Positions 12,655-57,133 of a stretch of 64,000 nucleotides of DNA are shown one piece after another. This stretch comes from Candidatus Aphodoplasma sp. (GTDB lineage Bacteria; Bacillota; Clostridia; UBA1381; UMGS1253), in contig JAZUQZ010000031.1 of assembly GCA_045626925.1 (NCBI GenBank), positions 11,087 through 75,086 of the forward strand, in the 5' to 3' direction. How positions within the stretch are numbered: position 1 is the stretch's first letter; every line of letters starts with the position of its first letter. Under the pieces are notes generated by a model. That model did not search any database and was not told the DNA's origin. It worked only from the letters and a program-made list of their open reading frames with translations. The position numbers and the translations under genes are program-made.

Positions 12655-13536
12655 ATGGCAGACACTATTTTAAGAGGCGTCAGTAACGACGGAAAAATAA
12701 GAATATTTGCTTCAAACACGACCGAGCTTGTAGGCCGTGCCCAAAAAATTCATAACAGCTACCCCATTGCAACGGCGGCGCTTGGCAGACTTTTGACCGC
12801 TGCAAGTATGATGGGAAGTATGCTAAAGGGCGAAAACGACACAATAACGCTTCGTATAAAGGGCGACGGCCCTCTTGGTGGCGTGCTTGCCGTCGGAAAT
12901 TCCAAGGGCGAAGTAAAGGGCTATAGTATAAACCCCGGTGTTGTCTTGCCGGACAAAATCCCCGGCAAGCTTAATGTAGGCGGCGCAGTAGGCAAGGGCA
13001 TGCTTGCCGTTATATGCGACCTTGGTCTAAAAGAACCGCATGTCGCACAGATAGAGCTTGTTTCGGGCGAAATTGCAGAGGATTTGACGGCATATTATGC
13101 CATATCAGAACAAATCCCAACCGCTATTGCGCTTGGAGTGCTTGTTGATACGGATGGTTCTGTTATAAGGGCAGGCGGCTTTATATTGCAGCTTATGCCG
13201 GATGCCACCGACGAAGACGCCGCAATCCTTGAAAAAACGATTGCCTCGCTTCCGCCTATAACGACAATGCTTGATGAAAATATGTCCTGCGAGGATATAA
13301 TTTTCAAAGTTACCGAGGGTTTTGATATGCTCATTTATAATGATGCGGTTTTGCCGAAATATAAGTGCGATTGTAATCGCGAGCGCGTTGAGCGTGCGCT
13401 TGTAAGCATGGGCGCAGACGAGATGCAAAAGCTTATCGACGAACAAGGCAGCGCAAATTTGACATGTCAATTCTGCGATAATGTATACGATTTTTCCAAA
13501 GACGAGTTGTTTAAGCTTCTAAAGTCATGTAAATAA
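12655..13536 (+). CDS. hslO: Redox-regulated chaperone Hsp33
   Basis: Full-length Hsp33-like translation with the C-terminal zinc centre CDC...CQFC. Confidence 0.9.
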   Translation: MADTILRGVSNDGKIRIFASNTTELVGRAQKIHNSYPIATAALGRLLTAASMMGSMLKGENDTITLRIKGDGPLGGVLAVGNSKGEVKGYSINPGVVLPDKIPGKLNVGGAVGKGMLAVICDLGLKEPHVAQIELVSGEIAEDLTAYYAISEQIPTAIALGVLVDTDGSVIRAGGFILQLMPDATDEDAAILEKTIASLPPITTMLDENMSCEDIIFKVTEGFDMLIYNDAVLPKYKCDCNRERVERALVSMGADEMQKLIDEQGSANLTCQFCDNVYDFSKDELFKLLKSCK

Positions 13537-13659
13537 ATATGGTTTTGTTGAAATTTTGCGAAATGTATTAAAAAAGTTAGTAAAACAACGAAAAAATGTT
13601 ATATTTTTATATTTTCCAAAAAAACAACCTATTTTAGGCTTTTTTGGCAAAATATTCAC

Positions 13660-13688
13660 TTGACATCTTGCATCGTTTTCTGTATAAT
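13660..13688 (+). promoter_or_regulatory. Consensus sigma-A promoter of the tRNA cluster
   Basis: TTGACA (13660-13665), 17 nt, TATAAT (13683-13688), with an AT-rich UP-like region upstream. Confidence 0.8.
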
Positions 13689-13732
13689 AGTCTATGTCGC
13701 TCGCGAGGGAGCACCTTTCGAGTGACATTTGT

Positions 13733-13808
13733 GGGAGTTTAGCTCAGCTGGGAGAGCATCTGCCTTACAAGCAGAGGGTCACAGGTTCGAGCCCTGTAAC
13801 TCCCACCA
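13733..13808 (+). tRNA. tRNA-Val (TAC)
   Basis: Cloverleaf with acceptor GGGAGTT/AACTCCC, anticodon loop cTTACAa, encoded CCA. Confidence 0.9.
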
Positions 13809-13812
13809 ATTT

Positions 13813-13889
13813 GGCCCGGTAGTTCAGTTGGTTAGAACGCCAGCCTGTCACGCTGGAGGTCGAGGGTTCGAGCCCCTTCCGGGTCGCCA
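13813..13889 (+). tRNA. tRNA-Asp (GTC)
   Basis: Acceptor GGCCCGG/CCGGGTC, anticodon stem-loop ccagc CTGTCAC gctgg, encoded CCA. Confidence 0.9.
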
Positions 13890-13936
13890 TCTTTTTTTAT
13901 AAAAGAATTGTGCGTTTGGTGTTTTGTGACACAAAT

Positions 13937-14012
13937 GCCTCTGTAGCTCAGTCGGTAGAGCAGGGGACTGAAAATCCCCGTGTCGGTGGTTCGATTCCGC
14001 CCGGAGGCACCA
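13937..14012 (+). tRNA. tRNA-Phe (GAA)
   Basis: Anticodon stem-loop gggga CTGAAAA tcccc, T-arm GGTTCGATTCC, encoded CCA. Confidence 0.9.
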
Positions 14013-14017
14013 TTTAT

Positions 14018-14092
14018 GCGGGAGTGGCTCAGTGGTAGAGCGTCACCTTGCCAAGGTGAACGTCGCGAGTTCGAATCTCGTCTTCCGCTCCA
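14018..14092 (+). tRNA. tRNA-Gly (GCC)
   Basis: Anticodon stem-loop tcacc TTGCCAA ggtga, encoded CCA. Confidence 0.9.
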
Positions 14093-14101
14093 TCTAAAAA
14101 T

Positions 14102-14138
14102 AAAAGGCGCATATACTAAAATTTGCGCCTTTTATTTT
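14102..14138 (+). terminator. Terminator after the first tRNA group
   Basis: aaggcgca ... tgcgcctt stem plus T-run. Confidence 0.7.
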
Positions 14139-14191
14139 AAAAGTTAATCATTTTTGTGTTTGCTGCATATAATATTAAAGCGGCTAATCAT

Positions 14192-14265
14192 GGTACCATA
14201 GCCAAGTGGTAAGGCAGAGGTCTGCAACACCTTCATCCCCGGTTCAAATCCGGGTGGTGCCTCCA
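14192..14265 (+). tRNA. tRNA-Cys (GCA)
   Basis: Acceptor GGTACCA/TGGTGCC, anticodon loop CTGCAAC, encoded CCA. Confidence 0.85.
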
Positions 14266-14269
14266 ATAT

Positions 14270-14344
14270 GGCCCGTTGGTCAAGCGGTTAAGACACCGCC
14301 CTTTCACGGCGGTAACACGAGTTCGATTCTCGTACGGGTCACCA
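14270..14344 (+). tRNA. tRNA-Glu (TTC)
   Basis: Anticodon stem-loop ccgcc CTTTCAC ggcgg, encoded CCA. Confidence 0.9.
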
Positions 14345-14389
14345 TACTTTTAGGTTGCTGTCGGCATTGACTGACAGCATCAACCTTTT

Positions 14390-14466
14390 GGGCCTTTAGC
14401 TCAGTTGGTTAGAGCAACCGGCTCATAACCGGTTGGTCCGGGGTTCGAGTCCCTGAAGGCCCACCA
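14390..14466 (+). tRNA. tRNA with CAT anticodon: elongator Met or lysidine-dependent Ile2, not initiator
   Basis: Acceptor GGGCCTT/AAGGCCC with a paired 1-72 position, anticodon loop CTCATAA, D-arm TAGCTCAGTTGGTTAGAGC. Met versus Ile2 cannot be decided by eye. Confidence 0.85.
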
Positions 14467-14597: not shown

Positions 14598-14640
14598 ATA
14601 AAATAGCACCTGATTTATAAAAATAATCAGGTGCTATTCT
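14598..14640 (-). terminator. Terminator of the XRE gene
   Basis: atagcacctgatt ... aatcaggtgctat 13-bp stem starting at the stop codon, with a T-run on the minus strand. Confidence 0.75.
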
Positions 14641-14846
14641 TTTTCAAATTTAATTATATCACTTACTTCACATTCAAGAACATAGCAAAGCGCATCAAGT
14701 GTTTTTGTGGTTATTGCTTCACCTTTTTTTATACGATGGAGTGTGTTTGCAGAAAAACCCTGCTTAAAAATTAAATGGTATTCTGTTAATCCCTTTTTAA
14801 ATAAAGTATTATAAAAAGGCTTATAACTAATCATTTTCATCACCAA
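14634..14846 (-). CDS. Small XRE-family helix-turn-helix transcriptional regulator
   Basis: About 66-70 aa. The HTH core (LTEYHLIFKQGFSANTLHRIKKGEAITTKTLDALCYVLECEVSDII) is typical of single-domain Cro/C1-type regulators. The true start may be the Met at 14834. Confidence 0.8.
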   Translation of the reverse strand: MVMKMISYKPFYNTLFKKGLTEYHLIFKQGFSANTLHRIKKGEAITTKTLDALCYVLECEVSDIIKFEKE

Positions 14847-14870
14847 ATTAATTTTATCATACTTAAAATA

Positions 14871-14899
14871 TTGACAACACTCAATAAATTAAGTATAAT
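14871..14899 (+). promoter_or_regulatory. Consensus sigma-A promoter of the GGDEF gene
   Basis: TTGACA (14871-14876), 17 nt, TATAAT (14894-14899). Confidence 0.75.
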
Positions 14900-14974
14900 T
14901 AATTAAATAATAGCAAGCATTGTGCAGATAAACGATAGCCATATACGGCATAGCAAAAATCCAAGGAGAAAAAA

Positions 14975-15568
14975 ATGACCACATCATTAGTTTTGACAAC
15001 AATTATAATAATATTACTTATAGTTATATTAATGCTTTTAACAATAATATACTCTCTTAACAAAAAAAATAAATATGTTGATGAAGCAAATATGTGGCAC
15101 AAACTTGCTGTTACAGATGATTTAACTGGTATTTATAACAGAAATGCATACAACTTATATGTTGAAGAAAACAAAGCAAATACAAAAAAAGAATCCAGGT
15201 GGATAATTCTTTTTGATGTTGACGATTTTAAAATAATTAACGATACAAAAGGTCATTTGTCAGGAGACCTTGTGCTTAAAAATGTAGCTAAATTGCTTTT
15301 AGAAATTTTTTCTTCATGTCAATATAGAGTTTTTCGCATAGGCGGGGATGAGTTTTTGGTTTTGGCAGAAAATATTTCTGAAGATGAAATAGTTGAGCAT
15401 TTGATTTTGGTAAAAAGGCGTTTTGAGAGGAATGGTGAGATAAATTTATCAAAAGGATATTCATTGATTAAAGATACTCCAGAAAAAGCTTTTAGATATG
15501 CAGATGAGATGCTTTATGCTGATAAATTGTCTAAAAAAAGGCGAAACTGCTCCGCAGAGAACATCTAA
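14975..15568 (+). CDS. Minimal membrane-anchored diguanylate cyclase (single TM + GGDEF domain)
   Basis: N-terminal TM helix, then LTGIYNRNAY ... FDVDDFKIINDTKGHLSGD ... RIGGDEFLVL with an intact GGDEF motif. No RxxD I-site is seen 5 residues upstream. Confidence 0.85.
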   Translation: MTTSLVLTTIIIILLIVILMLLTIIYSLNKKNKYVDEANMWHKLAVTDDLTGIYNRNAYNLYVEENKANTKKESRWIILFDVDDFKIINDTKGHLSGDLVLKNVAKLLLEIFSSCQYRVFRIGGDEFLVLAENISEDEIVEHLILVKRRFERNGEINLSKGYSLIKDTPEKAFRYADEMLYADKLSKKRRNCSAENI

Positions 15569-15726
15569 ATTTTCAAATGGTAGATTTATCAAAGGAGTCA
15601 TCTAAACCACTCGGCTTTTCCACAATTCGCGCTCAAACACTACACCCTGTTTTGACCACATTTTTATGCGTTTTTTAGCAAATTATAGTATAAAATTGTT
15701 TTTTATAAGAATTTTTTAAAAAAGTA

Positions 15727-15755
15727 TTGACAAGAGAAAAACAAAGGTGTATAAT
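15727..15755 (+). promoter_or_regulatory. Consensus sigma-A promoter driving the T-box leader
   Basis: TTGACA (15727-15732), 17 nt, TATAAT (15750-15755). Confidence 0.8.
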
Positions 15756-15782
15756 CAACTCAAATTTGAATATCACAAAGAA

Positions 15783-16041
15783 CGACTGTGACGAGGACGG
15801 TCGGATTGTGAAGCCTGGAGAGAGTTGCCGGTTGGTGCGAGGCAATGGTGAAACCTTCCAATGACTTATCACCTCTGAGTCGAAGGACCGAAAAGTTAAA
15901 CTTAGTAGACTCCTTCCGTAATGCTGCGTAAAGGCAAAGGGCTTGTTAGAGCTCGGTAAGTGACGGATTTGTATTCCGTAATTTGAGTGGTACCGCGGGT
16001 ATATATGCTCGTCTCAAAGTTATCTTTGGGGCGAGTTTTTT
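15783..16041 (+). promoter_or_regulatory. T-box riboswitch leader (tRNA-sensing transcription attenuator); specifier probably AUC (Ile), alternative CUU (Leu)
   Basis: The Stem I base CGAC/GUCG is followed by a K-turn (3-nt bulge UGU, tandem G.A pairs). An AG bulge (GGAGAGAG, 15817-15824) and a distal loop (GGUUGGUGCGA) follow. The specifier-loop 3' side reads GACUUAUCA, with AUC-A abutting the closing CCUC helix. The T-box sequence is AATTTGAGTGGTACCGCGGGT (15980-16000). The terminator stem ctcgtctcaaag/ctttggggcgag precedes TTTTTT. Confidence 0.85.
16008..16041 (+). terminator. Intrinsic terminator of the T-box leader
   Basis: 12-bp stem (16008-16019 / 16024-16035), ttat loop and T6 run. 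Its 5' arm can alternatively pair with the T-box sequence to form the antiterminator. Confidence 0.85.
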
Positions 16042-16100
16042 GTTTTATTCAGATTTGTAACCAATTATCGAATTTGTCAAAAATGAAAGGAGACAAAACA

Positions 16101-18401
16101 ATGGATTACAGTTTGAAAGAAGTAGCAGGCAGAATCAAAGACCTGCGTGAAGCAAAAGGATATACACAAGAGGAACTTGCAAAGCTTTGCGGTGTGTCGA
16201 CAGAAGATTACAAAATTTTAGAGATGGGCGAAACAGATTTCAGCTTCACATTCATCTACAAGTGTGCAAAAGCGTGTGGTGTTGAGGTTGTTGATTTGCT
16301 TGAAGGAACAAGCAGTACCCTTACCTCTTTCACTATCACAAGAAAAGGCGAAGGTCTTAAAATCGTAAAGAAGCATGGTGTGGAATATAATAACCTTGCG
16401 CCAAAGTTCAGAGAAAAACTCGCTGAACCTTTTCTCGTTAAATTTCCGTATCTTGAAGAGGAACAGAACGCTCCGATGCAGTTAAACTCACATAACGGTC
16501 AGGAATTTGATGTTATCGTTAAGGGTTCACTCAAGGTTCAGGTTGGAAATCATGTAGATATACTTCACGAAGGCGACTCTATCTTCTATAACAGCCTTAT
16601 CCCTCACGGAATGGTTGCAGTATCAGAAGGCGGATGCGAATTCCATGCGGTTGTATTAAATCCGCATGAAGGAACAGTTAGTGAAGAATACCCTGAAGCA
16701 CCTATGATCGTTGCAAAGGTGGCTGCTAAAAAGAAAAAATCAGAAACAGTTGCAGATAAATTTATTGAATCATCCTATGATGAAAACGGTGTATTTAGCG
16801 GTATCAAATTCAAGAACGCAGATTCATTCAACTTTGCATTTGACTGTGTGGATGCTATCGCTGAAAATAATCCTGATAAACTTGCTATGATGTGGGTTGC
16901 AAATGATAAGACCGACAGACGCTTTACTTTCAGCGATATGAAAAAGTATTCTGCAAAGACTGCAAACTACTTTGAATCACTCGGCATCAAAAAGGGCGAT
17001 ACAGTAATGCTTGTATTAAAGCGCCATTATCAGTTCTGGTTCTGTATGCTTGCACTTCATAAAATCGGTGCAATCGCAATTCCTGCAACAAATCAGCTTG
17101 TAGAACACGATTTTGATTACAGATACAAAGCGGCAAGAGTAAAAGCAGTTGTATGTACTGCTGATGGAGATGTATCTAACGAGGCAGAAAAGGCAGCAGT
17201 AAACTATCCCGGTATGGTTAAGGTTTTGGTTGGCGGAGAAAAAGAAGGCTGGCACAATTTCAATGTTGAAATGGAACGCTTCAGTACACATTTTGATCGC
17301 ACAGAAAACACTCCTTGCGGTAACGATCCGATGCTGATGCTCTTCACATCAGGAACAACAGGATATCCGAGAATTGCAACACATTCATACAAATATGCTC
17401 TGGGTCATTACCCGACTGCTAAGCATTGGCATAATGTAAACCCTGATGGACTTCACTTTACAATTTCTGATACCGGCTGGGGCAAGGCTCTTTGGGGTAA
17501 ACTTTACGGACAATGGCTCTGTGAAGCAGGCATATTTACTTACGATTTTGACCGTTTCCATTCCGAAGATATTTTGCCGATGTTTGCAAAATACAATATC
17601 ACAACCTTCTGTGCACCGCCCACAATGTATCGTTTCTTCATCAAAGAAGATTTGTCAAAATATGACCTTTCTTCTATCGAGTATGCGACAACCGCAGGCG
17701 AGGCATTAAATCCGGAAGTATTTAATCAATTTAAAAAAGCGACCGGTCTTACAATTATGGAGGGCTTTGGGCAGACAGAAACAACACTTTCCATCGCAAA
17801 CTTTGTTGGTTCTACACCAAGAATCGGCTCTATGGGCAAAGCAAGTCCTCTTTACGATGTTGTTGTTTTGGATCCAGATGGCAACGAATGTAAAATCGGC
17901 GATACGGGCGAAATCTGTATCAGAGTAAAGGACAATGCCCCTTGTGGACTCTTTATCGGATACTATCTTGATGAAGAAAAGACAAACGAAGTATGGCATG
18001 ATGGTTATTATCACACAGGCGATCAGGCAACAATGGACGAAGACGGATACCTTTGGTATGTTGGTCGTATCGACGATGTTATCAAATCATCAGGTTATCG
18101 CATAGGTCCTTTCGAGATTGAAAGTGTTATCATGGAACTTCCTTATGTTCTTGAATGTGCAATCACTCCTGTACCCGACGAAGTGCGTGGCCAGATTGTT
18201 AAGGCAACTATCGTGCTTGTAAAAGGAACACAAGCGACAGACGAGCTCAAAAAAGAAATCCAGGAATATGTTAAAACACATACTGCTCCATATAAATACC
18301 CAAGAATTGTTGAATTTGTGGATGAACTGCCAAAGACAATCAGCGGCAAGGTAAGAAGAGTTGAAATCCGTAAAAACGATATGGAGAAAATGAAAAAATA
18401 A
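16101..18401 (+). CDS. Fusion protein: XRE-type HTH + cupin domain (N-terminal ~190 aa) joined to an AMP-forming medium-chain-type acyl-CoA synthetase
   Basis: Start at 16101 (aaaggaga RBS); the listed start at 15987 runs through the leader terminator. The N-terminus MDYSLKEVAGRIKDLREAKGYTQEELAKLCGVS is an HTH, followed by a cupin barrel (GQEFDVIVKGSLKVQVGNHVDILHEGDSIFYNSLIPHG). The C-terminal ~530 aa carry adenylate-forming motifs: LFTSGTTGYPR, FGQTET, YHTGD, SSGYRIGPFEIES, PKTISGKVRR. Confidence 0.85.
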   Translation: MDYSLKEVAGRIKDLREAKGYTQEELAKLCGVSTEDYKILEMGETDFSFTFIYKCAKACGVEVVDLLEGTSSTLTSFTITRKGEGLKIVKKHGVEYNNLAPKFREKLAEPFLVKFPYLEEEQNAPMQLNSHNGQEFDVIVKGSLKVQVGNHVDILHEGDSIFYNSLIPHGMVAVSEGGCEFHAVVLNPHEGTVSEEYPEAPMIVAKVAAKKKKSETVADKFIESSYDENGVFSGIKFKNADSFNFAFDCVDAIAENNPDKLAMMWVANDKTDRRFTFSDMKKYSAKTANYFESLGIKKGDTVMLVLKRHYQFWFCMLALHKIGAIAIPATNQLVEHDFDYRYKAARVKAVVCTADGDVSNEAEKAAVNYPGMVKVLVGGEKEGWHNFNVEMERFSTHFDRTENTPCGNDPMLMLFTSGTTGYPRIATHSYKYALGHYPTAKHWHNVNPDGLHFTISDTGWGKALWGKLYGQWLCEAGIFTYDFDRFHSEDILPMFAKYNITTFCAPPTMYRFFIKEDLSKYDLSSIEYATTAGEALNPEVFNQFKKATGLTIMEGFGQTETTLSIANFVGSTPRIGSMGKASPLYDVVVLDPDGNECKIGDTGEICIRVKDNAPCGLFIGYYLDEEKTNEVWHDGYYHTGDQATMDEDGYLWYVGRIDDVIKSSGYRIGPFEIESVIMELPYVLECAITPVPDEVRGQIVKATIVLVKGTQATDELKKEIQEYVKTHTAPYKYPRIVEFVDELPKTISGKVRRVEIRKNDMEKMKK

Positions 18402-18426: not shown

Positions 18427-18909
18427 ATGCAGCTGAAAATGCAGAAAGACGGTAAATGGTATATGTATTTTGAAGATATAAAAATCGGAACACAAATCGA
18501 AATAGCACCTGCAATTATTGAAAAAGAAAAGATGCTTTCCTTTGCAAAAGATTATGACAATATCCCGCTTCATACCGATGAAGAATATGCAAAGAAAAGT
18601 CCTTTCGGCAAGTTAATTGCACCGGGGGTTATGTCCTTTATGTCTGTATGGGCAAAGTTTTTGGAAGTAGACATTTTTGGCGAGGAGCTTCTTGCCGGAA
18701 AGTCTACCAAAATTGAATGGCATAAGCCTGTTTTTGCGGAAGATGTACTAACCGGAAAGGCAGTTATAACAAATTGTATAGAGCGAAATGCCAAAAACGG
18801 ACTTGTGGAAATAACCATCTATGCCTATAATCAAAACGGTGCTCTTGTCCTTACTGATGTAACTGAAGCGATTGTGAAAAAAAGATATGATTCTTCTTTG
18901 TGTAATTAG
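18427..18909 (+). CDS. MaoC-like hotdog-fold (enoyl-CoA hydratase/dehydratase family) protein
   Basis: FAKDYDNIPLHTDEEYAKKSPFGKLIAPGVMSF matches the MaoC-dehydratase signature region. The true start may be the Met at 18463. Confidence 0.75.
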   Translation: MQLKMQKDGKWYMYFEDIKIGTQIEIAPAIIEKEKMLSFAKDYDNIPLHTDEEYAKKSPFGKLIAPGVMSFMSVWAKFLEVDIFGEELLAGKSTKIEWHKPVFAEDVLTGKAVITNCIERNAKNGLVEITIYAYNQNGALVLTDVTEAIVKKRYDSSLCN

Positions 18910-23885: not shown

Positions 23886-25220
23886 ATGCAAGTAACACAA
23901 ATTTGGAGTAATGTATTAAAATTGATAGAACCTGAAGTTACAGATATTGCCTTTTCAACATGGTTTAAAGATATAAATCCTGTTGCAATTGATGGCAAGA
24001 CTCTTATACTTTCTGTTTCAAATGACCTTATATTATCTGCATTGAAAAGAAGATATTTTGACCTTATACAAAATGCAGCAAACTCTGTATTTGGAGAAGA
24101 TTATAATATAAATCTTGTCATAGGTGACGATTATAAACCTGAAAACCAAATAAATGAATCAAATAATATGAATATGGCTTCTGCTGATGGATTCTTTTTA
24201 AATCCAAAATATACTTTTGAAACATTTGTCGTTGGTAATTCAAATCATTTTGCACATGCGGCTGCAGTTGCTGTTGCAGAAGCGCCGGCACAGACATATA
24301 ACCCGCTTTTCTTATATGGCGATTCCGGTCTTGGTAAAACACATCTTATACAAGCAATTGCAAACTATGCAAAACAAATAAATCCTGATTCAAAAATTGT
24401 ATATATTTCTTCTGAAAAATTTACAACAGAGCTTATAAATGCAATATCTACAAGAACAACAGAACAATTTCGTTCAAAGTTTAGAAATGCAGATATTCTT
24501 TTAATTGATGATATACAATTTCTTGCCGGAAAGGAAATGGCCCAAGAAGAATTTTTCCATACATTTAATGAACTTTATAACGCAAATAAACAAATAGTAC
24601 TTACAAGTGACCGTCTCCCGCGAGAAATAAATACATTAGAGGACAGACTTCGTACACGATTTGAGGGTGGACTTATGGGCGATATAAAACCGCCCGATTA
24701 TGAAACAAGAATTGCTATATTACAAAAAAAGGCATCACAAGATAATGTTGAGGTTCCATATGATGTATATTGTTATATGGCAGACAGTATAAAATCAAAT
24801 ATACGCGAGCTTGAAGGAGCTCTTACAAGAATAATATCTTATTCAAAAATTACCGGCAGAAAGCTTGATTTACAGCTTGCAGAGGAGGCACTTTCGACTG
24901 TTATAGAACAAAAAGGTGTTATAAGAATTACTGCAAAATCTATAAATGAAACAGTATCAAAATATTATAATATTCCGATTGAAGATATTAAAGGTAAAAG
25001 AAAAACACAGGATATTTCTGATGCAAGACAAGTTGCAATGTATTTGTGCAGAACACTTACAGATATGTCATTTGTAGTTATAGGAAAAGAATATGGCGGA
25101 AGACATTATACAACCGTAATGCATGCAGTAGATAATATCGAAGAAAGTATAAAAAATAATAGTGAGGTTGCATCTGCAATAGAAACAATGACAAAACAAT
25201 TAAAGACAATTTTGGGATAA
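23886..25220 (+). CDS. dnaA: Chromosomal replication initiator protein DnaA
   Basis: 444-aa full-length DnaA: Walker A GDSGLGKTHL, sensor motifs, and a C-terminal DNA-binding domain (RQVAMYLCR...GGRHYTTVMHA). Confidence 0.97.
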   Translation: MQVTQIWSNVLKLIEPEVTDIAFSTWFKDINPVAIDGKTLILSVSNDLILSALKRRYFDLIQNAANSVFGEDYNINLVIGDDYKPENQINESNNMNMASADGFFLNPKYTFETFVVGNSNHFAHAAAVAVAEAPAQTYNPLFLYGDSGLGKTHLIQAIANYAKQINPDSKIVYISSEKFTTELINAISTRTTEQFRSKFRNADILLIDDIQFLAGKEMAQEEFFHTFNELYNANKQIVLTSDRLPREINTLEDRLRTRFEGGLMGDIKPPDYETRIAILQKKASQDNVEVPYDVYCYMADSIKSNIRELEGALTRIISYSKITGRKLDLQLAEEALSTVIEQKGVIRITAKSINETVSKYYNIPIEDIKGKRKTQDISDARQVAMYLCRTLTDMSFVVIGKEYGGRHYTTVMHAVDNIEESIKNNSEVASAIETMTKQLKTILG

Positions 25221-25284
25221 TTATTAACATTTTTATATGAATATGTGAAAATGTTAATGTGGACGAATGTGTATTTGTGATTTG

Positions 25285-25293
25285 TGTGGATAA
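25285..25293. promoter_or_regulatory. DnaA box (TGTGGATAA) in the dnaA-dnaN spacer
   Basis: Perfect consensus in inverted orientation. A two-mismatch box TGTGGACGA lies at 25258-25266. Confidence 0.8.
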
Positions 25294-25357
25294 TTTTTAA
25301 TAGTTTTCCTTGTTTTTTGCTAATAAAAAAACACTATTATATCGCAGAAAAACAGAC

Positions 25358-25430
25358 TTTTCCATAAAATCCATATACACTACTAATACTACTTCTATAA
25401 TTATATTATTATATATTATTTTTTAAAAAG
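25358..25430. other. oriC: oriC, downstream half: two tandem degenerate DnaA boxes followed by a TAN-trinucleotide array and an AT-rich candidate unwinding element
   Basis: TTTTCCATA (25358-25366) and AAATCCATA (25367-25375) are adjacent 9-mers. From 25381 the sequence reads TAC TAA TAC TAC TTC TAT AAT TAT ATT ATT ATA TAT TAT TTT. This resembles the DnaA-trio plus DUE arrangement described for B. subtilis incC. Confidence 0.55.
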
Positions 25431-25442
25431 GAATGATGAAAT

Positions 25443-26549
25443 ATGAAATTTATATGTGACAAATCAAAATTGATAGAAGCTATAAATACTGTTCAAAAAG
25501 CTGTCAGTGCAAAATCGACACTTCCTATTTTAGAAGGTATTTTATTAGAATGTTTAGATAATAAAATTATTCTTACAGGAAATGACCTTGAAATTGGTAT
25601 AAAGTATGAAATTGAAGCAAGTGTTTCTCAAAATGGAAGTATAGTATTAAATTCAAGAATGTTTGGTGATATAATAAGAAAGCTTCCTGATGCTCCTGTT
25701 ATGATTGAAAGTGATGAAAATAATATTACAAATATAAAATGTGTTAATGTAGATTTTAATATTTCCGGCCTTTTAGCATCAGAATTTCCAAAAATTACAG
25801 AGGTTTTAAGAGATAATTTTATAAAAATAGAAGCAAATAAACTTAAAAAAATGATTAGACAGACAATTTTTGCAGTATCAATTCGTGAAAACAAGCCTGT
25901 TTTAACCGGTGCATTATTTGAAATAGAAAATGATAAATTTACAATGGTTGCAAGTGATGGATATAGACTTGCAATAAGAAAAGAAACAATAAAAGACAGT
26001 GAAAAAACAATAAATGCAATTGTTCCGGGTAAAACATTAAATGAACTTTTAAAAATTATAAAAGATGACAATACTTTTATAAATATATATTTTACAGACA
26101 AGAATGTATTGTTTGAATTTGATGATTTTATAGTAACATCTCGTCTTCGTGATGGAGAATATATAAAATACAAGTCTGCAATACCGTCTGAATATAATAT
26201 TGAAATAAATGCAAATGTTATGTCATTTTGTGACTCTATTGACAGAGCATCGCTTATAATAAATACAGATAATTCAAAAAGTCCTCTAAAGCTTGATATA
26301 AAAGACGATACAATAACAATTAGTTGCAGTTCGCATATGGGAAAGGTATCTGATATTATAAATGTTGATTCAAGTGGTGGAGAGCTTGTTATAGGTTTTA
26401 ATCACAGATATTTATGGGATGCATTTAAAAATTGTGATGATGAAGAAGTAAAAATGAAATTTATTTCTGAAAGATATCCACTTATTGTTACACCTACAAA
26501 CAGTGATGAATTTTTGTATATGATACTTCCAATTATTATTCAGTCATAA
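25443..26549 (+). CDS. dnaN: DNA polymerase III beta sliding clamp
   Basis: 368-aa three-domain clamp translation, starting MKFICDKSKLIEAINTVQKAVSAKSTLPILEGILLE. Confidence 0.95.
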   Translation: MKFICDKSKLIEAINTVQKAVSAKSTLPILEGILLECLDNKIILTGNDLEIGIKYEIEASVSQNGSIVLNSRMFGDIIRKLPDAPVMIESDENNITNIKCVNVDFNISGLLASEFPKITEVLRDNFIKIEANKLKKMIRQTIFAVSIRENKPVLTGALFEIENDKFTMVASDGYRLAIRKETIKDSEKTINAIVPGKTLNELLKIIKDDNTFINIYFTDKNVLFEFDDFIVTSRLRDGEYIKYKSAIPSEYNIEINANVMSFCDSIDRASLIINTDNSKSPLKLDIKDDTITISCSSHMGKVSDIINVDSSGGELVIGFNHRYLWDAFKNCDDEEVKMKFISERYPLIVTPTNSDEFLYMILPIIIQS

Positions 26550-26576
26550 AAATATATAAAATTAACGGAGAATATT

Positions 26577-26801
26577 ATGGAAAAAGTAGAGGTTAGTATA
26601 AATACAGAGTATATAAAACTTGACCAACTTTTAAAATACAGCGGTATTGCAGAGAGCGGTAGCGATGCAAAGGATATGATTTTGGACGAAATTGTAAAAT
26701 TTAATGGCGAAGTGTGTACTATGCGCGGTAAAAAAGTACGCAAAGGCGATAATGTTGAGATTGAATTTGAAGATGAAACTGTTTTAATTGTGGTAGGGTA
26801 G
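26577..26801 (+). CDS. yaaA: S4-domain RNA-binding protein YaaA
   Basis: 74-aa S4-like protein in the conserved dnaN-yaaA-recF position. Confidence 0.85.
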   Translation: MEKVEVSINTEYIKLDQLLKYSGIAESGSDAKDMILDEIVKFNGEVCTMRGKKVRKGDNVEIEFEDETVLIVVG

Positions 26802-26802
26802 T

Positions 26803-27900
26803 ATGTATATAACAAATTTAAAACTTAAAGATTTTCGTAATTATGAAAGTGCTGACATAAATTTTATAAATGGTACTAATATAATTTATGGAAACAATGC
26901 CCAAGGAAAAACAAATATACTTGAAGCAATATTTCTTTTTTGCACTGCGCGCTCGCACAGACGCGCCACAGACAGAGAAATTATAAAAAAAGACTGTGAG
27001 CAAAGCATTATTGATATAAAATTCAGTGATGATGTGAGAGATTATGTTGGCAGGATGAAAATTCTTGATGGAAAAAAGAAATTTGTAAATATAAACAATG
27101 TAAATATTAAAAAAATAAGTCATATTGCTGATTATATAAATGTTGTAATGTTTTCGCCGGAGGATTTATTTATAATAAAAGACTCCCCGTCTGTAAGACG
27201 GCGATTTATTGATATGTCTATAAGTCAGATTTCGCCTGTTTATGTTTCATTTCTTAATGATTATTTAAAAATTATAAATCAAAGAAATAATCTTTTAAAA
27301 GAAATAAAACGATATAATAAAAGCGATGAAACACTTGATATATGGGACGAGTATCTTGTTGATTTATCATGTAAAATAATTAAATATCGTCGTGAGTTTA
27401 TAAAAAAGCTTCAAGAATTTTCTAAAAAAATTCACTATGAAATATCAACAGAAAATCTTTTAATAAAGTACATATCAAATTGTAATGAAAATATTTATGA
27501 TGATGAGAAATTATATACAGAGCTTTGTGAAAAAATAAAAAAATCGAGAAAGCGCGATATTGAAACCGGCATGACTAACATTGGCGCACACAGGGATGAT
27601 TTTGTTTTTTATATAAACGAAAACGATGCAAAAATTTATGGTTCACAGGGACAACAAAGAAGTGTTGTATTGAGTTTAAAGCTTGCACTCACGGAAATTA
27701 TAAAAAATGAAAAAGGAAGCTATCCGATAATTTTATTAGATGATATTATGAGCGAGCTTGATGAGTCGAGAAGACAGTACTTGTCGGGCAAAATTGAGGA
27801 CAAGCAGGTCATTATTACTTGTACCGATAAAGAACAAAAAGCAAATTATTCAAATGTAAAATATTTTAATGTATCAAATAATAGTGTAAAAGAAGAGTAA
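26803..27900 (+). CDS. recF: DNA replication and repair protein RecF
   Basis: MYITNLKLKDFRNYE start, Walker A GNNAQGKTNILEAI, signature GSQGQQRS, Walker B ILLDDIMSELD. Confidence 0.95.
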   Translation: MYITNLKLKDFRNYESADINFINGTNIIYGNNAQGKTNILEAIFLFCTARSHRRATDREIIKKDCEQSIIDIKFSDDVRDYVGRMKILDGKKKFVNINNVNIKKISHIADYINVVMFSPEDLFIIKDSPSVRRRFIDMSISQISPVYVSFLNDYLKIINQRNNLLKEIKRYNKSDETLDIWDEYLVDLSCKIIKYRREFIKKLQEFSKKIHYEISTENLLIKYISNCNENIYDDEKLYTELCEKIKKSRKRDIETGMTNIGAHRDDFVFYINENDAKIYGSQGQQRSVVLSLKLALTEIIKNEKGSYPIILLDDIMSELDESRRQYLSGKIEDKQVIITCTDKEQKANYSNVKYFNVSNNSVKEE

Positions 27901-27911
27901 GAGGTGAGAAG

Positions 27912-28178
27912 ATGTATCTTCATTTAGGCTCTGATGTTGTTGTTTCACAAAGTGAAATTATTGCAATTTTTGACCTTGATACAACATCTATTTCGAAGAT
28001 TACAAGAGATTTTTTAAACACCACACAAAAAGCAAATAAGGTAATAGATGTGAGCAGTCACGATTTGCCGAAAAGTTATGTATTATGTGGTAAAAAAGAT
28101 AGATTTAATATTTATATTTCTCCTTTGTCATCACAAACACTCTACAAGCGTGCTTCTGGTAAATTCAGGATTGAATAA
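27912..28178 (+). CDS. remB: DUF370 / RemB-like small protein
   Basis: 88 aa in the recF-gyrB position occupied by remB (yaaB) in B. subtilis; the N-terminus (LGSDVVVSQSEIIAIFDLD) is typical of DUF370. Confidence 0.7.
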   Translation: MYLHLGSDVVVSQSEIIAIFDLDTTSISKITRDFLNTTQKANKVIDVSSHDLPKSYVLCGKKDRFNIYISPLSSQTLYKRASGKFRIE

Positions 28179-28219
28179 ATTTATTATATTACCCTTGATA
28201 CAGAAAGGAAATGTAAAAA

Positions 28220-30133
28220 ATGATTGAAAACAATATTACAAACAATTATGATGAAAATCAAATACAAGTGCTTGAGGGACTTGAAGCAGTAAGAAAGCGT
28301 CCCGGCATGTATATCGGTTCGACATCGATTCGTGGCTTGCACCACCTTGTGTATGAAATTGTGGACAATGCTATTGATGAAGCGCTTGCAGGTTTTTGTA
28401 AAAATATTACTGTTACTATAGACAAGGGTAATATTATCACAGTAACTGATGATGGTAGAGGTATACCTGTTGGTATTCATCCAAAAATGGGTATATCGAC
28501 ACTTGAGGTTGTATTTACAATTCTTCACGCAGGTGGCAAGTTTGGCGGTGGAGGATATAAGGTGTCGGGCGGTTTGCACGGTGTTGGTTCGTCTGTTGTA
28601 AACGCACTTTCACAATGGCTTGAGGTTGAAGTATCAACCGGAGAAGATATATATTTCCAAAGATTTGAGCGTGGTAAAAGCTGTGGCAGTGCAAAAGTAA
28701 TTGGAAAGACCGACAAAACGGGCACAAAGGTTTCATTTTTGGCAGATGATACAATTTTTGAAACATTAGAATATGAATATGAGACACTACTTACTCGTCT
28801 TCGTGAGCAGGCATTTTTGAATGCAGGTATAAATATTGTATTTACTGACAATCGTACAGAAGAGCCTGTTATAAATACAATGCATTATGAGGGCGGTATT
28901 CGTGAATTTGTAAAGCATGTAAATCGTAAAAAGGTTGCAATACATGATGATGTTATATATTTTGAGGCACAAAAAAATGATGCCCAGGTAGAAATTGCAA
29001 TGCAATATACTGATAATTATAACGAAAATCTTATCAGCTTTGCAAACAATATAAACACAACCGAGGGTGGTACACATGAAATGGGCTTTAAGGCCGCTCT
29101 TACGAGAGTGTTTAACGACTATGCAAGAAAGTATAATATATTAAAAGAAAAAGACCAAAATTTATCCGGCGAGGATGTAAGAGAAGGACTTACTGCAATT
29201 ATAAGCGTAAAGGTTGTTGAGGCACAGTTTGAAGGACAAACAAAGACAAAGCTTGGTAATTCAGAAATAAGAGGCCTTGTTGATAAGGCTGTAAGTGACA
29301 AATTTACAGATTTTCTTGAAGAAAACCCACCAATAGCACGAATGATACTTGAAAAGTCGCTTACTGCAGCTCGTGCACGAGAGGCTGCACGAAAAGCGCG
29401 TGAAGCAACAAGAAAATCAAATTCGTTTGGCGATACTTCACTGCTTGGCAAGCTTGCGCGTTGCTCTGGCGATGACCCGGAAAAGAATGAAATTTATATC
29501 GTAGAGGGTGACTCGGCAGGTGGCTCGGCAAAACAAGGCCGTGACAGAAGCTTTCAGGCGATACTTCCTTTGTGGGGCAAGATGCTTAATGTTGAAAAAT
29601 CAAGAATCGACAAAGTATATGGAAATGAAAAGCTTTTGCCGATTATAATGTCGCTTGGTACAGGCATTGGTGATGATTTTGATATTACAAAGCTAAAATA
29701 TCACAAAATTATTATAATGGCCGATGCCGATGTCGATGGCTCACATATTCGTACGCTCTTGTTGACATTTTTCTTCAGACATATGCGTCCTCTTGTAGAT
29801 GCGGGGCATATATATCTTGCACAACCACCTCTGTTTAAAATTACAAAGGGTAAAACGGTAAAATATGTGTATAATGATGCTGACCTTTCAAAAGCGACAG
29901 AGGAGCTTGGTGGAAAGTGTGATGTGCAGCGTTATAAAGGTCTTGGTGAAATGACAGCGACACAGCTTTGGGAAACAACAATGAACCCGGAAACAAGAAC
30001 AATGCTTCGTGTAAATGTTGATGACGCAGTTTTGGCAGATGAGATGTTTACAGTGCTTATGGGCGACAATGTTGAGCCAAGACGCGAATTTATTGAAAAG
30101 AATGCAAGTCTTGTTACAAATCTTGATATTTAA
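28220..30133 (+). CDS. gyrB: DNA gyrase subunit B
   Basis: 637-aa GHKL ATPase plus Toprim translation ([42 protein letters not shown]). No gyrA follows. Confidence 0.97.
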
Positions 30134-31680: not shown

Positions 31681-34140
31681 TTATTTTATAACAAGCTCGC
31701 CATCTACAACATCTATTGTGATACTATCGCCTGATTTTATGTTGTTTTCAAGCATTTTCTCCGCAAGCAAATCTTCAATCCTTGACTGTATAGCGCGGCG
31801 GAGCGGTCTTGCACCGTATACGGGGTCAAAGCCTTCTTTTGCAATCTGTGTTATCGCCTCATCACTAAATTCTGCCGTGATGCCGTTTTCTGCAAGACGG
31901 TTTTTAAGTGTATCAAGCATAAGTGATGCGATTTTTTTGATTTCGTCCTCTCCAAGCTGATGAAATACTATTGTATCATCAATTCTGTTCAAAAACTCGG
32001 GTCTAAAATGTTTTTTAAGTTCGCCTAAAACATCATTTTTTATTTGTTCATATGTTTTGTTATCGCTATCGCTTGATGTCGAAAAACCAAGCTTTTGTCC
32101 TTTTTGTGCAGTAATAAGCCTTGCGCCGATGTTTGATGTCATAATAATAATTGTATTTCTAAAATCTACGCGCCTACCTTGCGAATCGGTCAAAATGCCA
32201 TCCTCAAGAATTTGTAAAAGAATATTAAACACATCGGGATGTGCCTTTTCAATTTCGTCAAAAAGTATTACACTATACGGTTTGCGACGCACTTTTTCAG
32301 TAAGCTGACCGGCGTCATCATAGCCCACATATCCCGGAGGCGAACCAACAAGTCGCGATACGGAGTGCTTTTCCATATATTCGCTCATATCGACGCGTAT
32401 CATATCGTCTTCAGAACCAAACATTGACTGTGCAAGCGCTTTTGAAAGCTCTGTCTTGCCGACGCCAGTCGGTCCAAGGAATATAAACGAGCCTATTGGG
32501 CGTTTCGGGTCCTTTAAACCAACGCGCCCGCGCCGTATTGCTTTTGCAACGGCTTGCACGGCTTCGCTTTGACCTATTACACGCTTGTGGAGTGTCTCTT
32601 CCATATTAAGAAGCTTTACCGATTCGTCGTTTGTAAGCTTTGATACGGGTATATTTGTCCACTCGGACACGATTGTTGCAATTTGCTCATAATCAACAGC
32701 CGTTTTTTCTGTTGCGTGCTCATCTTTCCATGCGTCCTGCTCTTTTTTAAGTGCCTCTTCCACTTGTTTTTCATCATCACGCAGCTTTGCAGCACGCTCG
32801 AAATCCTGCACGGCTACTGCGCTTTCTTTTTCAGCACATATCTTTTCAAGCTTTTCCTCAAGCTCTTTTATAGCAGGCGGAGCGGTAAGAGTACCAAGAC
32901 GCACCTTTGACGCCGCCTCGTCTATAAGGTCAATTGCCTTATCGGGCAAAAATCTGTCCGTAATATATCTTGTTGAAAGCTCGACTGCGGCTTTTATTGC
33001 TTCGTCGGTGATTTTTACGCCGTGATGTGCCTCGTACTTGTCGCGTATACCCATAAGAATTTGGACGCTTTCTTCTTGGGTGGGTTCGCCGACGGTAATC
33101 GGCTGGAAACGACGCTCGAGCGCAGAGTCTTTTTCGATATGTTTTCTGTATTCTTCAAGTGTTGTAGCACCAATCATCTGTATTTCGCCACGCGCAAGCG
33201 ATGGCTTTAAGATGTTTGAGGCGTCGATTGCGCCCTCTGCTGCACCTGCACCAATTATTGTATGCATTTCATCGATAAATAAAATCACATTCCCTGATTT
33301 TGCGACCTCTGTCATGGCGGTCTTAAGTCTTTCTTCAAACTCGCCTCTGTATTTTGCGCCGGCAATCATAGACGAAAGGTCAAGCGTAAACAAACGCTTA
33401 TCACGAAGCACCTCCGGCACATCGCCTGCGACTATTTTTTGTGCAAGACCTTCGATTACTGCTGTTTTGCCGACGCCAGGTTCGCCAATAAGGCAGGGGT
33501 TGTTTTTTGTTCGTCTTGATAAAATCTGAATAACGCGACTGATTTCCTTGTCACGCCCAATTACAGGGTCAAACTTACCCTCGGTTGCCATTTTTGTAAA
33601 ATCGCGCCCAAACTGGTCAAGTGTTGGCGTGTTTGTTTTTTTGTTTGGTGCGCCACCTTGTGACGAGGAGGGCATATCTGCTGAGCCGTTGCCTTGATAA
33701 TTTGACAGAGTTGCCATAATTTCTGCATAAAATGTTGCAAGCTCAAGCCCAAGCTCGCTCAAAATCTTTACTGCAACATTTTCTCCCTCGCGAATAATTG
33801 CTAAAAGCATATGCTCGGTACCGATATAATTGTGTGCCATTTTGCGTGCCTCGGCAAAGCTTAGCTCGATTATTCTTTTTGTGCGTGGCGTCATCATAAG
33901 CTGGGTCGATTTTGCAATTTCTTCCTTTTTGCCCATAAACTCAATGATTTTTTCCTTTACAATATCGTAGGTTATATCCTTTTGTGACAAAAGCTTGCCC
34001 GCAAGGGCGCTCTCATCACTACAAAGACCTGCAAGAATATGCTCTGTTCCAATATATCCGTGTCCGAGTTCGCACGCGGTTGCATGTGCACTGCGCAGCG
34101 CTTCCTGGGCTTTTTGTGTAAAACGATTTTCAAATGTCAT
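31681..34140 (-). CDS. clpC: ATP-dependent Clp protease ATP-binding subunit ClpC
   Basis: 819 aa with Clp_N repeats, two AAA+ modules ([16 protein letters not shown]) and a UVR-like linker. Last gene of ctsR-mcsA-mcsB-clpC. Confidence 0.97.
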
Positions 34141-55654: not shown

Positions 55655-57133
55655 ATGACCGGAGCAGAAATTTATAAAGATATTGCCACAAGGACCGATG
55701 GCGATATTTACATTGGTGTTGTAGGACCTGTACGCACGGGAAAATCTACATTTATAAAGCGTTTTATGGACTCGCTTGTAATCCCAAATATTGATAGTGA
55801 GTACAAGGCCGCGCGTGCGCGTGACGAGCTTCCGCAAAGTGCGGCGGGACGCACAATAATGACCACCGAACCAAAATTTATTCCAAATGAGGCAGTTGAT
55901 ATCGCACTTGATGAAAATGCGCATATGAATGTGCGTATGATAGATTGTGTCGGTTACATAGTCGACTCTGCTATGGGATACATGGAGGATGGCGAGCCGC
56001 GCATGGTACAGACACCATGGTTTGAGCATCAAATCCCGTTCAATGAGGCGGCAGAGCTTGGTACAAAAAAGGTTATATGTGACCACTCTACGATAGGGCT
56101 TGTTGTTACAACAGATGGCACTATAACCGATATTGCGCGAGAGGATTATGCCGATGCAGAGATGCGCGTTATAAACGAGCTTAAAAGTATTGGAAAGCCG
56201 TTCGTTGTGCTTATAAATTCAACAAATCCAAACGGCGATGCAGCCCAAGCGCTCAAAGAGGAGCTTGGAGAAAAATATGGCGTTGCTACTATGGCAGTAA
56301 ACTGTGCCGAGCTTTCAGCAAAGGATATTCACGATATAATGGAGAGCGTCTTGTTCGAATTTCCTCTCTGTGAAATAACAATAAACACTCCGCGATGGAT
56401 TGATGGGCTTGATATGTCGCATGCGCTCAAACAAGGTGTATATGATGCGATTATTTGTGCAACCCAAAACGCGCACACAATAAAAGATGCAAAATTCGTT
56501 GCCGAGGCTCTTGGGGAATACGATTTTGTAAAATCCGCAAAGATTGATGCGGTAAATCTTGGAAACGGAAGTGTATCAATCGATTTTTATATGCCTGATG
56601 AGCTGTTTTATAATGTTTTAAGCGAGCTGTCGGGGCTCGAAATTGAGGGTGAAGAGGCGCTTATACGATTGATATGCGAGCTTTCTGAAACAAAAAAGCG
56701 CTATGACAAGATTGCATATGCATTGCACGAGGTGTCACAAAAGGGCTATGGCATAGTTTCGCCCACGATTGATGAGCTTACACTTGAGGAGCCGCAAATC
56801 GTCCGCCAGGGCAATCGCTTTGGTGTAAAATTAAAGGCTTCGGCGCCGAGCATACATATGATTCGTGCAGATATTGAAACAGAAGTTTCGCCAATTGTTG
56901 GTTCTGAAAAGCAATCAGAGGAGCTTGTGGAGTATCTTTTGGCCGAATTTGACTCCGACCCAAAGAAAATATGGGAGTCAAATATATTTGGCAAATCGCT
57001 TCACGAGCTTGTAAACGAGGGCCTTCACAACAAGCTTGTGCGCATGCCGGACGAGGCACAGTTAAAGCTTCAGGAAACACTTACAAGAATTATTAACGAA
57101 GGCTCCGGCGGGCTTATTTGTATAATACTTTAA
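55655..57133 (+). CDS. spoIVA: Stage IV sporulation protein A (spore coat morphogenetic ATPase)
   Basis: IYKDIATRTDGDIYIGVVGPVRTGKSTFIKRFMD (Walker A) and a 492-aa length identical to typical SpoIVA. C-terminus GGLICIIL. Confidence 0.95.
   Translation: MTGAEIYKDIATRTDGDIYIGVVGPVRTGKSTFIKRFMDSLVIPNIDSEYKAARARDELPQSAAGRTIMTTEPKFIPNEAVDIALDENAHMNVRMIDCVGYIVDSAMGYMEDGEPRMVQTPWFEHQIPFNEAAELGTKKVICDHSTIGLVVTTDGTITDIAREDYADAEMRVINELKSIGKPFVVLINSTNPNGDAAQALKEELGEKYGVATMAVNCAELSAKDIHDIMESVLFEFPLCEITINTPRWIDGLDMSHALKQGVYDAIICATQNAHTIKDAKFVAEALGEYDFVKSAKIDAVNLGNGSVSIDFYMPDELFYNVLSELSGLEIEGEEALIRLICELSETKKRYDKIAYALHEVSQKGYGIVSPTIDELTLEEPQIVRQGNRFGVKLKASAPSIHMIRADIETEVSPIVGSEKQSEELVEYLLAEFDSDPKKIWESNIFGKSLHELVNEGLHNKLVRMPDEAQLKLQETLTRIINEGSGGLICIIL

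Follow-up and report, generated by a model that had tools for sequence, protein, structure and literature searches.

Why would a helix-turn-helix (HTH) module with a cupin, an arrangement typical of small regulators that stand alone, be carried in one reading frame with a complete acyl-coenzyme A (acyl-CoA) synthetase, and what would the cell gain from such a union? The question is raised by a gene in a 64,000-nucleotide (nt) stretch of Candidatus Aphodoplasma sp. (contig JAZUQZ010000031.1), this whole stretch being called the window in what follows, where positions 16101–18401 of the plus strand, stop codon included, encode a protein of 766 amino acids (aa). The answer proposed here is that the synthetase, a ligase, would activate 2-methylbutyrate for the salvage of isoleucine under the control of an isoleucine T-box, and that the N-terminal module (N-module) could be a sensor acting upon the ligase, this last part being put forward tentatively.

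The gene lies within a longer frame in the list of open reading frames (15987–18401, plus strand), and its start had been placed by the original prediction at 16101, masked by an in-frame extension. This start is accepted because every 766-aa homologue starts with the matching methionine (MDYSLKE), and because a ribosome-binding site, AAAGGAG (16086–16092), kept in the close clade (protein identity of at least 81%), stands 8 nt upstream; the upstream GTG at 15987 was rejected, as its first 38 codons overlap the T-box terminator and the homologues begin with MDYSLKE. Four Pfam domains follow one another in one frame, each above its gathering score: HTH_3 (aa 12–65, 1.2e-9), Cupin_2 (aa 128–184, 1.8e-8), AMP-binding (aa 252–621, 1.3e-56), and AMP-binding_C (aa 672–750, 7e-22). 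Together with AlphaFold2 models, alignments and conservation, they delimit an XRE-type five-helix HTH domain (aa 5–68; 16113–16304), a cupin beta-barrel with the invariant residues H131, E135, and H169 (aa 106–186; 16416–16658), a disordered and fast-evolving linker (aa 190–213; 16668–16739) with KKKK at aa 210–213, and an acyl-CoA synthetase of the ANL superfamily (16743–18398), with its N-domain at aa 215–655 and its C-domain at aa 656–766, the last also recognized by NCBIfam and by its identity to the structure 3ETC. The adenylation motifs are found at aa 416–424 (TSGTTGYPR), 555–561 (GFGQTET), 637–641 (YHTGD), 655–674 (GRIDDVIKSSGYRIGPFEIE), and 744–753 (PKTISGKVRR), and the core motifs A3, A5, A7, and A8 and the A10 lysine are all intact. 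The fusion described by the original prediction, an HTH_3 and cupin N-terminus passing in a single frame through a KKKK linker into a synthetase with every adenylation motif preserved, is thus confirmed in every particular.

A frameshift, an assembly artefact, or a stop between two genes, which had been named as what could undo this description, is excluded by thousands of independent assemblies that encode an uninterrupted fused homologue. When 5.8 billion proteins were searched for homologues, 8000 candidates came up; the best 120 are all of 756–776 aa, have the same four domains, and are annotated as nothing other than “AMP-binding protein,” “helix-turn-helix domain-containing protein,” or “acetyl-CoA synthetase”; a second search, starting from a member of 55% identity, again returned 8000 candidates, all of them fused. 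The four-domain architecture is kept in lineages whose N-modules are only 35–46% identical, and in a scan that took a single genome for each species, relatives turned up in at least 592 species, all of them gut or rumen Clostridia (Oscillospiraceae, Acutalibacteraceae, Ruminococcus), with Neglectibacter timonensis SN17 as a cultured example. The fusion is real, old, and abundant. It also appears to be uncharacterised, as had been supposed, since the literature search found no paper on it and NCBIfam holds no family covering the N-module.

The elements upstream of the gene, likewise on the plus strand, indicate when it is expressed. A sigma-70 promoter (15727–15755; TTGACA-17 nt-TATAAT, 12 of 12 matches), whose boxes are conserved across loci and which is preceded, directly 5′ of its −35 box, by an A/T-rich T-run/A-run resembling an UP element and enriched at these loci (15706–15724), leads into a T-box leader of the transcription-attenuation type (15779–16019). 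The latter matches the full model RF00230 (1–219) with 94.4 bits and E = 2e-19, passing the gathering score of 93 by a small margin; the orthologous leaders score 93–105 bits, and the motif lies upstream of the fusion gene in about 70 of 73 orthologous loci. In the register of the Rfam alignment the specifier codon is AUC (15868–15870), and the triplet ATC is present in every readable leader (about 68 aligned) while its flanking bases vary, this invariance identifying an isoleucine T-box. The T-box bulge UGGU (15988–15991), for which the motif GAGTGGTACCGCG is invariant, is complementary to ACCA at the 3′ terminus of the tRNA (discriminator A), and a predicted intrinsic terminator with a 13-pair stem and a T-run occupies 16007–16046. 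With specifier, bulge and terminator all located, the sequence bears out the T-box that had been suggested to control this gene at the RNA level.

As regards the substrate, the ligase aligns with MacsMa (PDB 3ETC) over 528 residues at 54% identity (E = 5e-201), and keeps the residues of its acyl pocket, namely the Trp in GWGKxxW (GWGKALW vs GWGKCVW) and the Gly in FGQTET, the same in both. In other words, it has the alternate acyl pocket, with an equivalent of MacsMa Trp259 and with Gly replacing the Trp of Acs; the numbering of this pocket is deduced from the Lys256-Cys298 link named in the title of the PDB entry. The best NCBIfam model is MbcS (NF047394), with 452 bits, and the MbcS of Staphylococcus aureus is a ligase selective for 2-methylbutyrate and isobutyrate whose role is the supply of fatty-acid primers. 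MacsMa, from Methanosarcina acetivorans, has 2-methylbutyrate as its preferred substrate and also adenylates propionate (PMC10455477).

The genes that surround the fusion are mostly not conserved. At loci L065 and L075, the genes next in line after the fusion encode a CbiA-like P-loop protein, three subunits (alpha, beta, and gamma) of a 2-oxoacid:ferredoxin oxidoreductase, and a class-IV aminotransferase. Moreover, five loci (L070, L071, L077, L080, L090) have a second HTH-cupin-ligase paralogue on the 3′ side of the first, with a T-box of its own whose specifier is GTA or GTC; the GTA specifiers, which correspond to valine, belong to the tandem paralogues of L070, L071, L077, and L080, the T-box of the homologue P0140 carries GTC, also valine, and at L070, L077, and L080 the isoleucine and valine copies both lie 5′ of the same oxidoreductase/aminotransferase cluster. 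A CbiA/MinD-like P-loop protein of 220 aa always stands between the ligase gene or genes and those of the oxidoreductase (L065:8318–8980, L070:10942–11607, and in L075, L077, and L080).

Homology, the Ile and Val specifiers, and gene context all point to a preference for 2-methylbutyrate, and it is highly probable that the ligase activates this acid for the salvage of isoleucine by reductive carboxylation. The series of events would be as follows: (i) when tRNA-Ile is uncharged, the AUC T-box would let transcription from the strong constitutive promoter read through; (ii) the ligase would convert exogenous 2-methylbutyrate into 2-methylbutyryl-CoA; (iii) the 2-oxoacid:ferredoxin oxidoreductase would reductively carboxylate this to 2-keto-3-methylvalerate; (iv) and finally, a branched-chain aminotransferase would yield isoleucine, the last two enzymes being presumably encoded elsewhere in this genome, while valine would be handled by the paralogues, likewise from branched-chain acids. 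The passages of PMC7356843 that cite Allison et al. (1962) and Allison (1965) describe rumen bacteria incorporating branched-chain acids and phenylacetate into amino acids. A purpose for the ligase was missing from the original prediction, and the salvage of isoleucine from 2-methylbutyrate is the best-supported part of the explanation given here.

Other T-box genes of this kind were observed in the same set of loci. An operon with a leucine specifier (CUC), which often adjoins the isoleucine ligase gene, is found at L054:574–5576 and also at L009, L011, L020, L065, and L090; its first gene encodes a LeuA-like synthase (HMGL-like and LeuA_dimer), its second another uncharacterised fusion of about 830 aa, in which a xylose-isomerase-like TIM barrel (AP_endonuc_2) is joined to an acyl-CoA synthetase, and its third an Amidohydro_2 protein. 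A probable phenylalanine T-box (UUC, in an ambiguous register) precedes a PaaK-like ligase of 435–460 aa, similar in sequence to phenylacetate-CoA ligases (L054:12439–14083, L009:11572–13227, L029:~12774–14216), which suggests a T-box-gated salvage of phenylalanine from phenylacetate. In the window itself, a MaoC-like hot-dog protein (18427–18909, plus strand; Pfam MaoC_dehydratas) begins 25 nt past the ligase stop and, since no terminator separates the two genes, is probably co-transcribed with the fusion, although it may or may not belong to the system; 6 loci have a homologue in the vicinity of the fusion gene, which it follows immediately in the window, L014, and L061, and a hydratase or a thioesterase would be its possible roles in the pathway.

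What, then, is the contribution of the N-module? Stand-alone homologues of about 190 aa, 48–51% identical to it, exist in Hydrogenoanaerobacterium, Ligaoa, Zongyangia, and others, and five of the six examined are located 3–38 nt 5′ of an unfused ligase of 550–553 aa, 58–60% identical to that of the window; in four lineages, such a split pair follows an ATC T-box. As the stand-alone copies sit just upstream of ligases, HTH-cupin and ligase form a conserved pair, fused or split, in which the N-module is an obligate partner of the ligase: some genomes carry the two joined, while others encode the module by a gene of its own, coupled in translation to that of the ligase. An exception to the pairing is P0343 (L088:4001–5308), a stand-alone copy whose next gene encodes an RsmE-like RNA methyltransferase and not a ligase. 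In the close clade, identity is 88% for the HTH, 92% for the cupin, and 91% for the ligase, against 54% for the linker; in distant clades, the linker falls to 13% vs 47–77% for the domains. The HTH is, in other words, under purifying selection as strong as that of the enzyme, and as it is conserved about equally with cupin and ligase it must be functional and not a relic. Between isoleucine and valine paralogues of the same genome, the HTH (44–53% identity) and the cupin (49–54%) diverge more than the ligase (68–74% and 92–96%), and the type-specific signatures, which persist across genomes, lie mostly in helices 1 and 4 and in the cupin, not in the recognition helix.

In the AlphaFold2 model, the N-module is formed by five helices (aa 5–19, 23–30, 34–41, 49–59, and 63–68) and a cupin barrel, with a predicted local distance difference test score (pLDDT) of 85, and in the full-length model the linker, at a pLDDT of about 27, is predicted to be disordered. 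A BLAST match to the repressor PuuR (E = 7e-5 over 174 aa) places it among the relatives of the XRE-cupin regulators; its match to the NCBIfam PuuR model (E = 5e-4) remains far under the cutoff. Foldseek finds as top matches HppE, Psf4, HEPD, and MPnS (E down to 5e-15), and most of the solved proteins of this two-domain fold are precisely these enzymes, whose HTH-like domain does not bind DNA; it also finds 1Y9Q (E = 7e-14, template modelling (TM) score 0.53/0.59), the closest solved regulator-like structure, which holds an amino acid in its cupin pocket and thereby makes the sensing of isoleucine or a related metabolite plausible whether the N-module addresses the enzyme or DNA. The reading leaned towards here, with a confidence somewhat short of an even chance, is that the N-module is a metabolite sensor acting on the ligase, giving feedback on the first committed step: isoleucine or a keto-acid of the pathway, held in the cupin pocket, would feed back on the enzyme to which it is attached. 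The original prediction had itself allowed for a cupin serving as an allosteric ligand sensor, and this appears at least as likely as the trigger enzyme that it had named first.

The explanation as a whole, that is, a ligase for isoleucine salvage together with a sensor directed at it, is judged to be as probable as its negation, and several points weigh against it: (i) the full-length AlphaFold2 model shows no confident contact between N-module and ligase (predicted TM score 0.61); (ii) the XRE-cupin proteins that have been characterised by experiment all repress neighbouring genes by binding DNA; (iii) a regulator gene directly upstream of its target suits the repressor paradigm equally well; (iv) the purifying selection on the HTH and its canonical XRE helix-1 and helix-2 motifs are not obviously explained by an enzyme-directed sensor; (v) with 452 bits, the ligase does not reach the MbcS equivalog cutoff of 850 bits, and is a relative and not an equivalog; (vi) and finally, neither an oxidoreductase nor an aminotransferase is found within the 64 kb of the window.

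The best-surviving alternative, doubtful but possible, is that the protein would be at once a catalyst and a transcription factor, a trigger enzyme or fused local repressor whose HTH would recognise an operator, be it in the promoter or leader of its own gene or in promoters elsewhere. Its cupin would sense 2-methylbutyrate or the acyl-adenylate or acyl-CoA made by the ligase, as BirA does, and together with the T-box it would form an AND gate, transcription taking place only if isoleucine is short and the substrate present. The N-module is homologous to the XRE-cupin repressors, its HTH is as conserved as the ligase, and the stand-alone versions lie directly 5′ of a ligase. Where they have been tested, XRE-cupin regulators act as dimers that repress adjacent metabolic genes, bind to palindromes, and come off the DNA when they sense a precursor of the pathway (PMC7901475). 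Two sites could be thought of as operators: the leader element at 15761–15782 (about +1), discussed below, whose outer arms, TTTG-N7-CAAA, form a dyad and which recurs, inverted, past the terminator; and the split pair without T-box of L087 (L087:3700–6251), where inverted TTCCAAA/TTTGGAA words flank a sigma-70 promoter. If any operator exists for the protein, L087 would be the best site in which to seek it.

However, no motif is shared across clades, even though the recognition helix is conserved family-wide. Enrichment in 24 distant promoters is limited to the −35 box, the start of the T-box, and the A/T T-run/A-run 5′ of the −35 box, and reveals no shared operator; this T-run/A-run occurs also at the unrelated leucine and phenylalanine T-box promoters, and so looks like a generic UP-type element of strong promoters rather than a specific operator. 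For the same reason, the A/T palindrome at that position was rejected as a specific operator or CodY box. The word TTTGRAA was also discarded as a family-wide operator, its matches lying mostly at the UP-like position and a 5′/3′ pair being present in only 3 of 42 distant loci. Besides this, many distant leaders leave only 10–20 nt between the −10 box and the T-box. The recognition helix reads GV-x-x-E-E/D-Y throughout the family and GVS-TEDYKILEMGE here, so that the positions usually taken by R, S, T, Q, or K in XRE proteins carry T, E, D, I, M, and E, and the lack of the usual polar and basic contact residues is suggestive of a module that would not bind DNA. The simpler argument that an acidic HTH does not bind DNA is weakened, as the HTH region of PuuR is also net negative, and the helix-2 sequence TQEELA is canonical for XRE, so that of the two arguments only that from the recognition helix stands. 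Nor is it in the recognition helix that the paralogues have mainly diverged, and a one-to-one fusion to a strongly expressed enzyme would be an odd stoichiometry for the repressor of a single operator.

The leader element requires separate consideration, being the one conserved element in the promoter region (15650–15780) that the original prediction had proposed as a binding target. The sequence CAAATTTGAATATCACAAAGAA (15761–15782), which begins at about +1, is nearly invariant in 36 close-clade leaders, in which the promoter spacer varies, and its reverse complement, TTTTTTGTTTTATTCAGATTTG (16036–16057), begins in the U-tract of the terminator; alignment and pairing make of them the 5′ and 3′ strands of a putative long-range helix. 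In those leaders, 89.6% of the cells of the 20-pair helix are paired vs 61% at most in slid registers, the changes are mainly from U-A to U-G, the 3′ strand varying between A and G opposite U, and the covariation score exceeds that of 500 of 500 shuffles. The predicted duplexes are far stabler than shuffled controls in the close clade (median z = −3.8); in the distant clades the element is absent and the median duplex z is −0.4, while the distant-clade locus L055 has an independent 5′/3′ pair made of another sequence. Most simply, the two strands would form an RNA helix, peculiar to this clade, around the entire T-box of the read-through transcript. As the core of the helix never varies, paired DNA sites are another candidate, and the role of the element may be transcript stabilisation, processing by RNase III, or that of DNA sites. 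As support for a repressor it is weakened by being restricted to one clade, by its weak dyad arms, and by a partner that varies between A and G opposite U, as in RNA pairing; the palindrome TCAAATTTGA (15760–15769) was rejected as an operator because its left half is not conserved.

Of the claim that the protein is both catalyst and transcription factor, there remains a true homologue of the XRE-cupin repressors with its HTH under purifying selection; the DNA-binding role is not established, and no family-wide operator accompanies it. The presence of an enzyme and an XRE-type HTH domain in one polypeptide makes it a trigger enzyme, a term already in use (PMC8249747), at the level of domain architecture only. 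A more ambitious version, to be regarded as unlikely, would see here a new class of trigger enzymes, in which the fusion reads the substrate or the acyl-adenylate or CoA product through its cupin, binds DNA, and forms with the isoleucine T-box an AND gate of protein and RNA, the isoleucine and valine paralogues being insulated from one another by the divergence of their N-modules; such binding could involve the two conserved sites, the one at +1 and the one past the terminator, with the T-box looped out between them.

It is also conceivable, although quite improbable, that the ligase is as described and its purpose another: 2-methylbutyryl-CoA, or isobutyryl-CoA from the valine copy, would prime anteiso and iso fatty acids when the primers derived from amino acids run short, as with the MbcS of S. 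aureus, or else the substrate would be propionate, on the way to 2-oxobutyrate. MbcS, with its established role in fatty-acid primers, is after all the best NCBIfam model, the isoleucine T-box would equally signal a lack of the primer derived from isoleucine, most loci, the window included, have no adjacent oxidoreductase or aminotransferase, and MacsMa adenylates propionate too. However, where there is a context, the ligase gene stands in line with those of an oxidoreductase and of a branched-chain aminotransferase, enzymes that interconvert acyl-CoA, keto-acid, and amino acid; T-boxes read the charging of tRNA, whose direct remedy is to make the amino acid; the propionate route has no counterpart for the valine-wired paralogue; and other T-boxes of the same genomes govern acid-activating ligases with matching specifiers, leucine and probably phenylalanine, all of which favors the salvage of isoleucine.

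Finally, that the HTH-cupin is a second catalytic domain, metal-dependent and HppE-like, which would act on the ligase's own substrate or product and whose HTH-like part would serve for oligomerisation, is very improbable: although enzymes head the Foldseek matches, H131-x3-E135...H169 is invariant in fused and stand-alone members and presumably resembles the 2-His-1-Glu triad of HppE, and fused or split gene pairs are typical of enzyme subunits, the repressor PuuR shares the H...E...PH pattern, which is thus a family trait and was discarded as the sign of an enzyme, the TM-scores with HppE are low (~0.47) and those with 1Y9Q better, the salvage route requires no extra chemistry, oxygenase chemistry is unlikely in strict anaerobes, and the achiral isobutyrate of the valine paralogue speaks against an epimerase.

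Some further observations concern the surroundings of the gene and its family. The window contains the chromosomal origin region (dnaA, dnaN, recF, and gyrB; 23886–30133), a cluster of seven tRNAs (Val, Asp, Phe, Gly, Cys, Glu, Met) at 13733–14466, just upstream of the fusion locus, and SpoIVA at 55655–57133, which marks a spore-former. Directly 5′ of the promoter, the interval 14634–15568 encodes, on the minus strand, a small Cro/C1-type HTH protein of 70 aa, which is basic (pI 8.9), as well as a short GGDEF protein of 197 aa, and neither is conserved beside the fusion gene in other loci. The frame at 31681–34140 was rejected as a second copy of the fusion, being a ClpC-type ATPase and not a paralogue. 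Within the family, the 758-aa fused homologue P0166 has a degenerate P-loop, QSYSYGMAK where TSGTTGxPK is usual, no longer carries the A10 lysine (PKDANGV), and gives no Pfam HTH match; judging by these motifs, its lineage may be a catalytically dead derivative that retains the cupin.

The need of cellulolytic ruminococci and many gut Clostridia for branched-chain volatile fatty acids, which are carboxylated into branched-chain amino acids, has been known since the 1960s, and in the literature searched the activating enzyme of this route was not tied to a gene. The fusion, whose family is also represented by thousands of metagenomic sequences, places a candidate gene on this classical pathway from branched acid to isoleucine, and as the T-box specifiers tag its copies “Ile” or “Val,” they provide a testable gene assignment and a trait marker for rumen and gut metagenomes. 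Two T-box surveys and the other literature searched make no mention of acid-activating CoA ligases under T-box control, so that the T-box regulon would be widened beyond tRNA synthetases, biosynthesis genes, and transporters to ligases that scavenge acids. For the XRE-cupin family, an abundant partner of this kind would be new either way, whether as a transcription factor joined to the very enzyme that it targets or as an HTH-cupin repurposed into an enzyme-directed sensor.

In comparison with known systems, the closest solved two-domain folds are those of HppE, HEPD, and MPnS, with an HTH-like alpha-domain and a cupin, which differ by an identity of 22–24% and by their phosphonate- and O2-dependent context, absent here. 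BirA, NadR, and PutA also unite an HTH-type domain and an enzyme in one polypeptide, and BirA is an adenylate-forming ligase too, whose adenylate is its corepressor; in contrast, their folds and families are unrelated, and in the present protein DNA binding is only putative and an RNA switch already senses the end product. The XRE-cupin factors (PuuR of Escherichia coli, PauR, PsdR, and ErfA of Pseudomonas aeruginosa, and 1Y9Q of Vibrio cholerae) share with the N-module HTH_3 and Cupin_2, the size (about 185 aa for the stand-alone relatives), the H...E...PH motif of the cupin, and a gene beside the associated metabolic gene; here, however, the module is fused or translationally coupled to an enzyme, its recognition helix departs from the usual type, the search for a palindromic operator yielded none, and a T-box already controls transcription. 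MbcS, the best curated family, is an ANL ligase for the same branched C4/C5 acids, but it is unfused, it supplies primers for fatty acids, T-box control has not been reported for it, and the window ligase scores far below 850 bits. MacsMa, for its part, is archaeal, has neither an HTH-cupin module nor a T-box, and its role is not tied to isoleucine starvation; in the catalytic part, it shares with the ligase of the window 54% identity, the acyl-pocket Trp of GWGKxxW, and a Gly in place of the Acs Trp.

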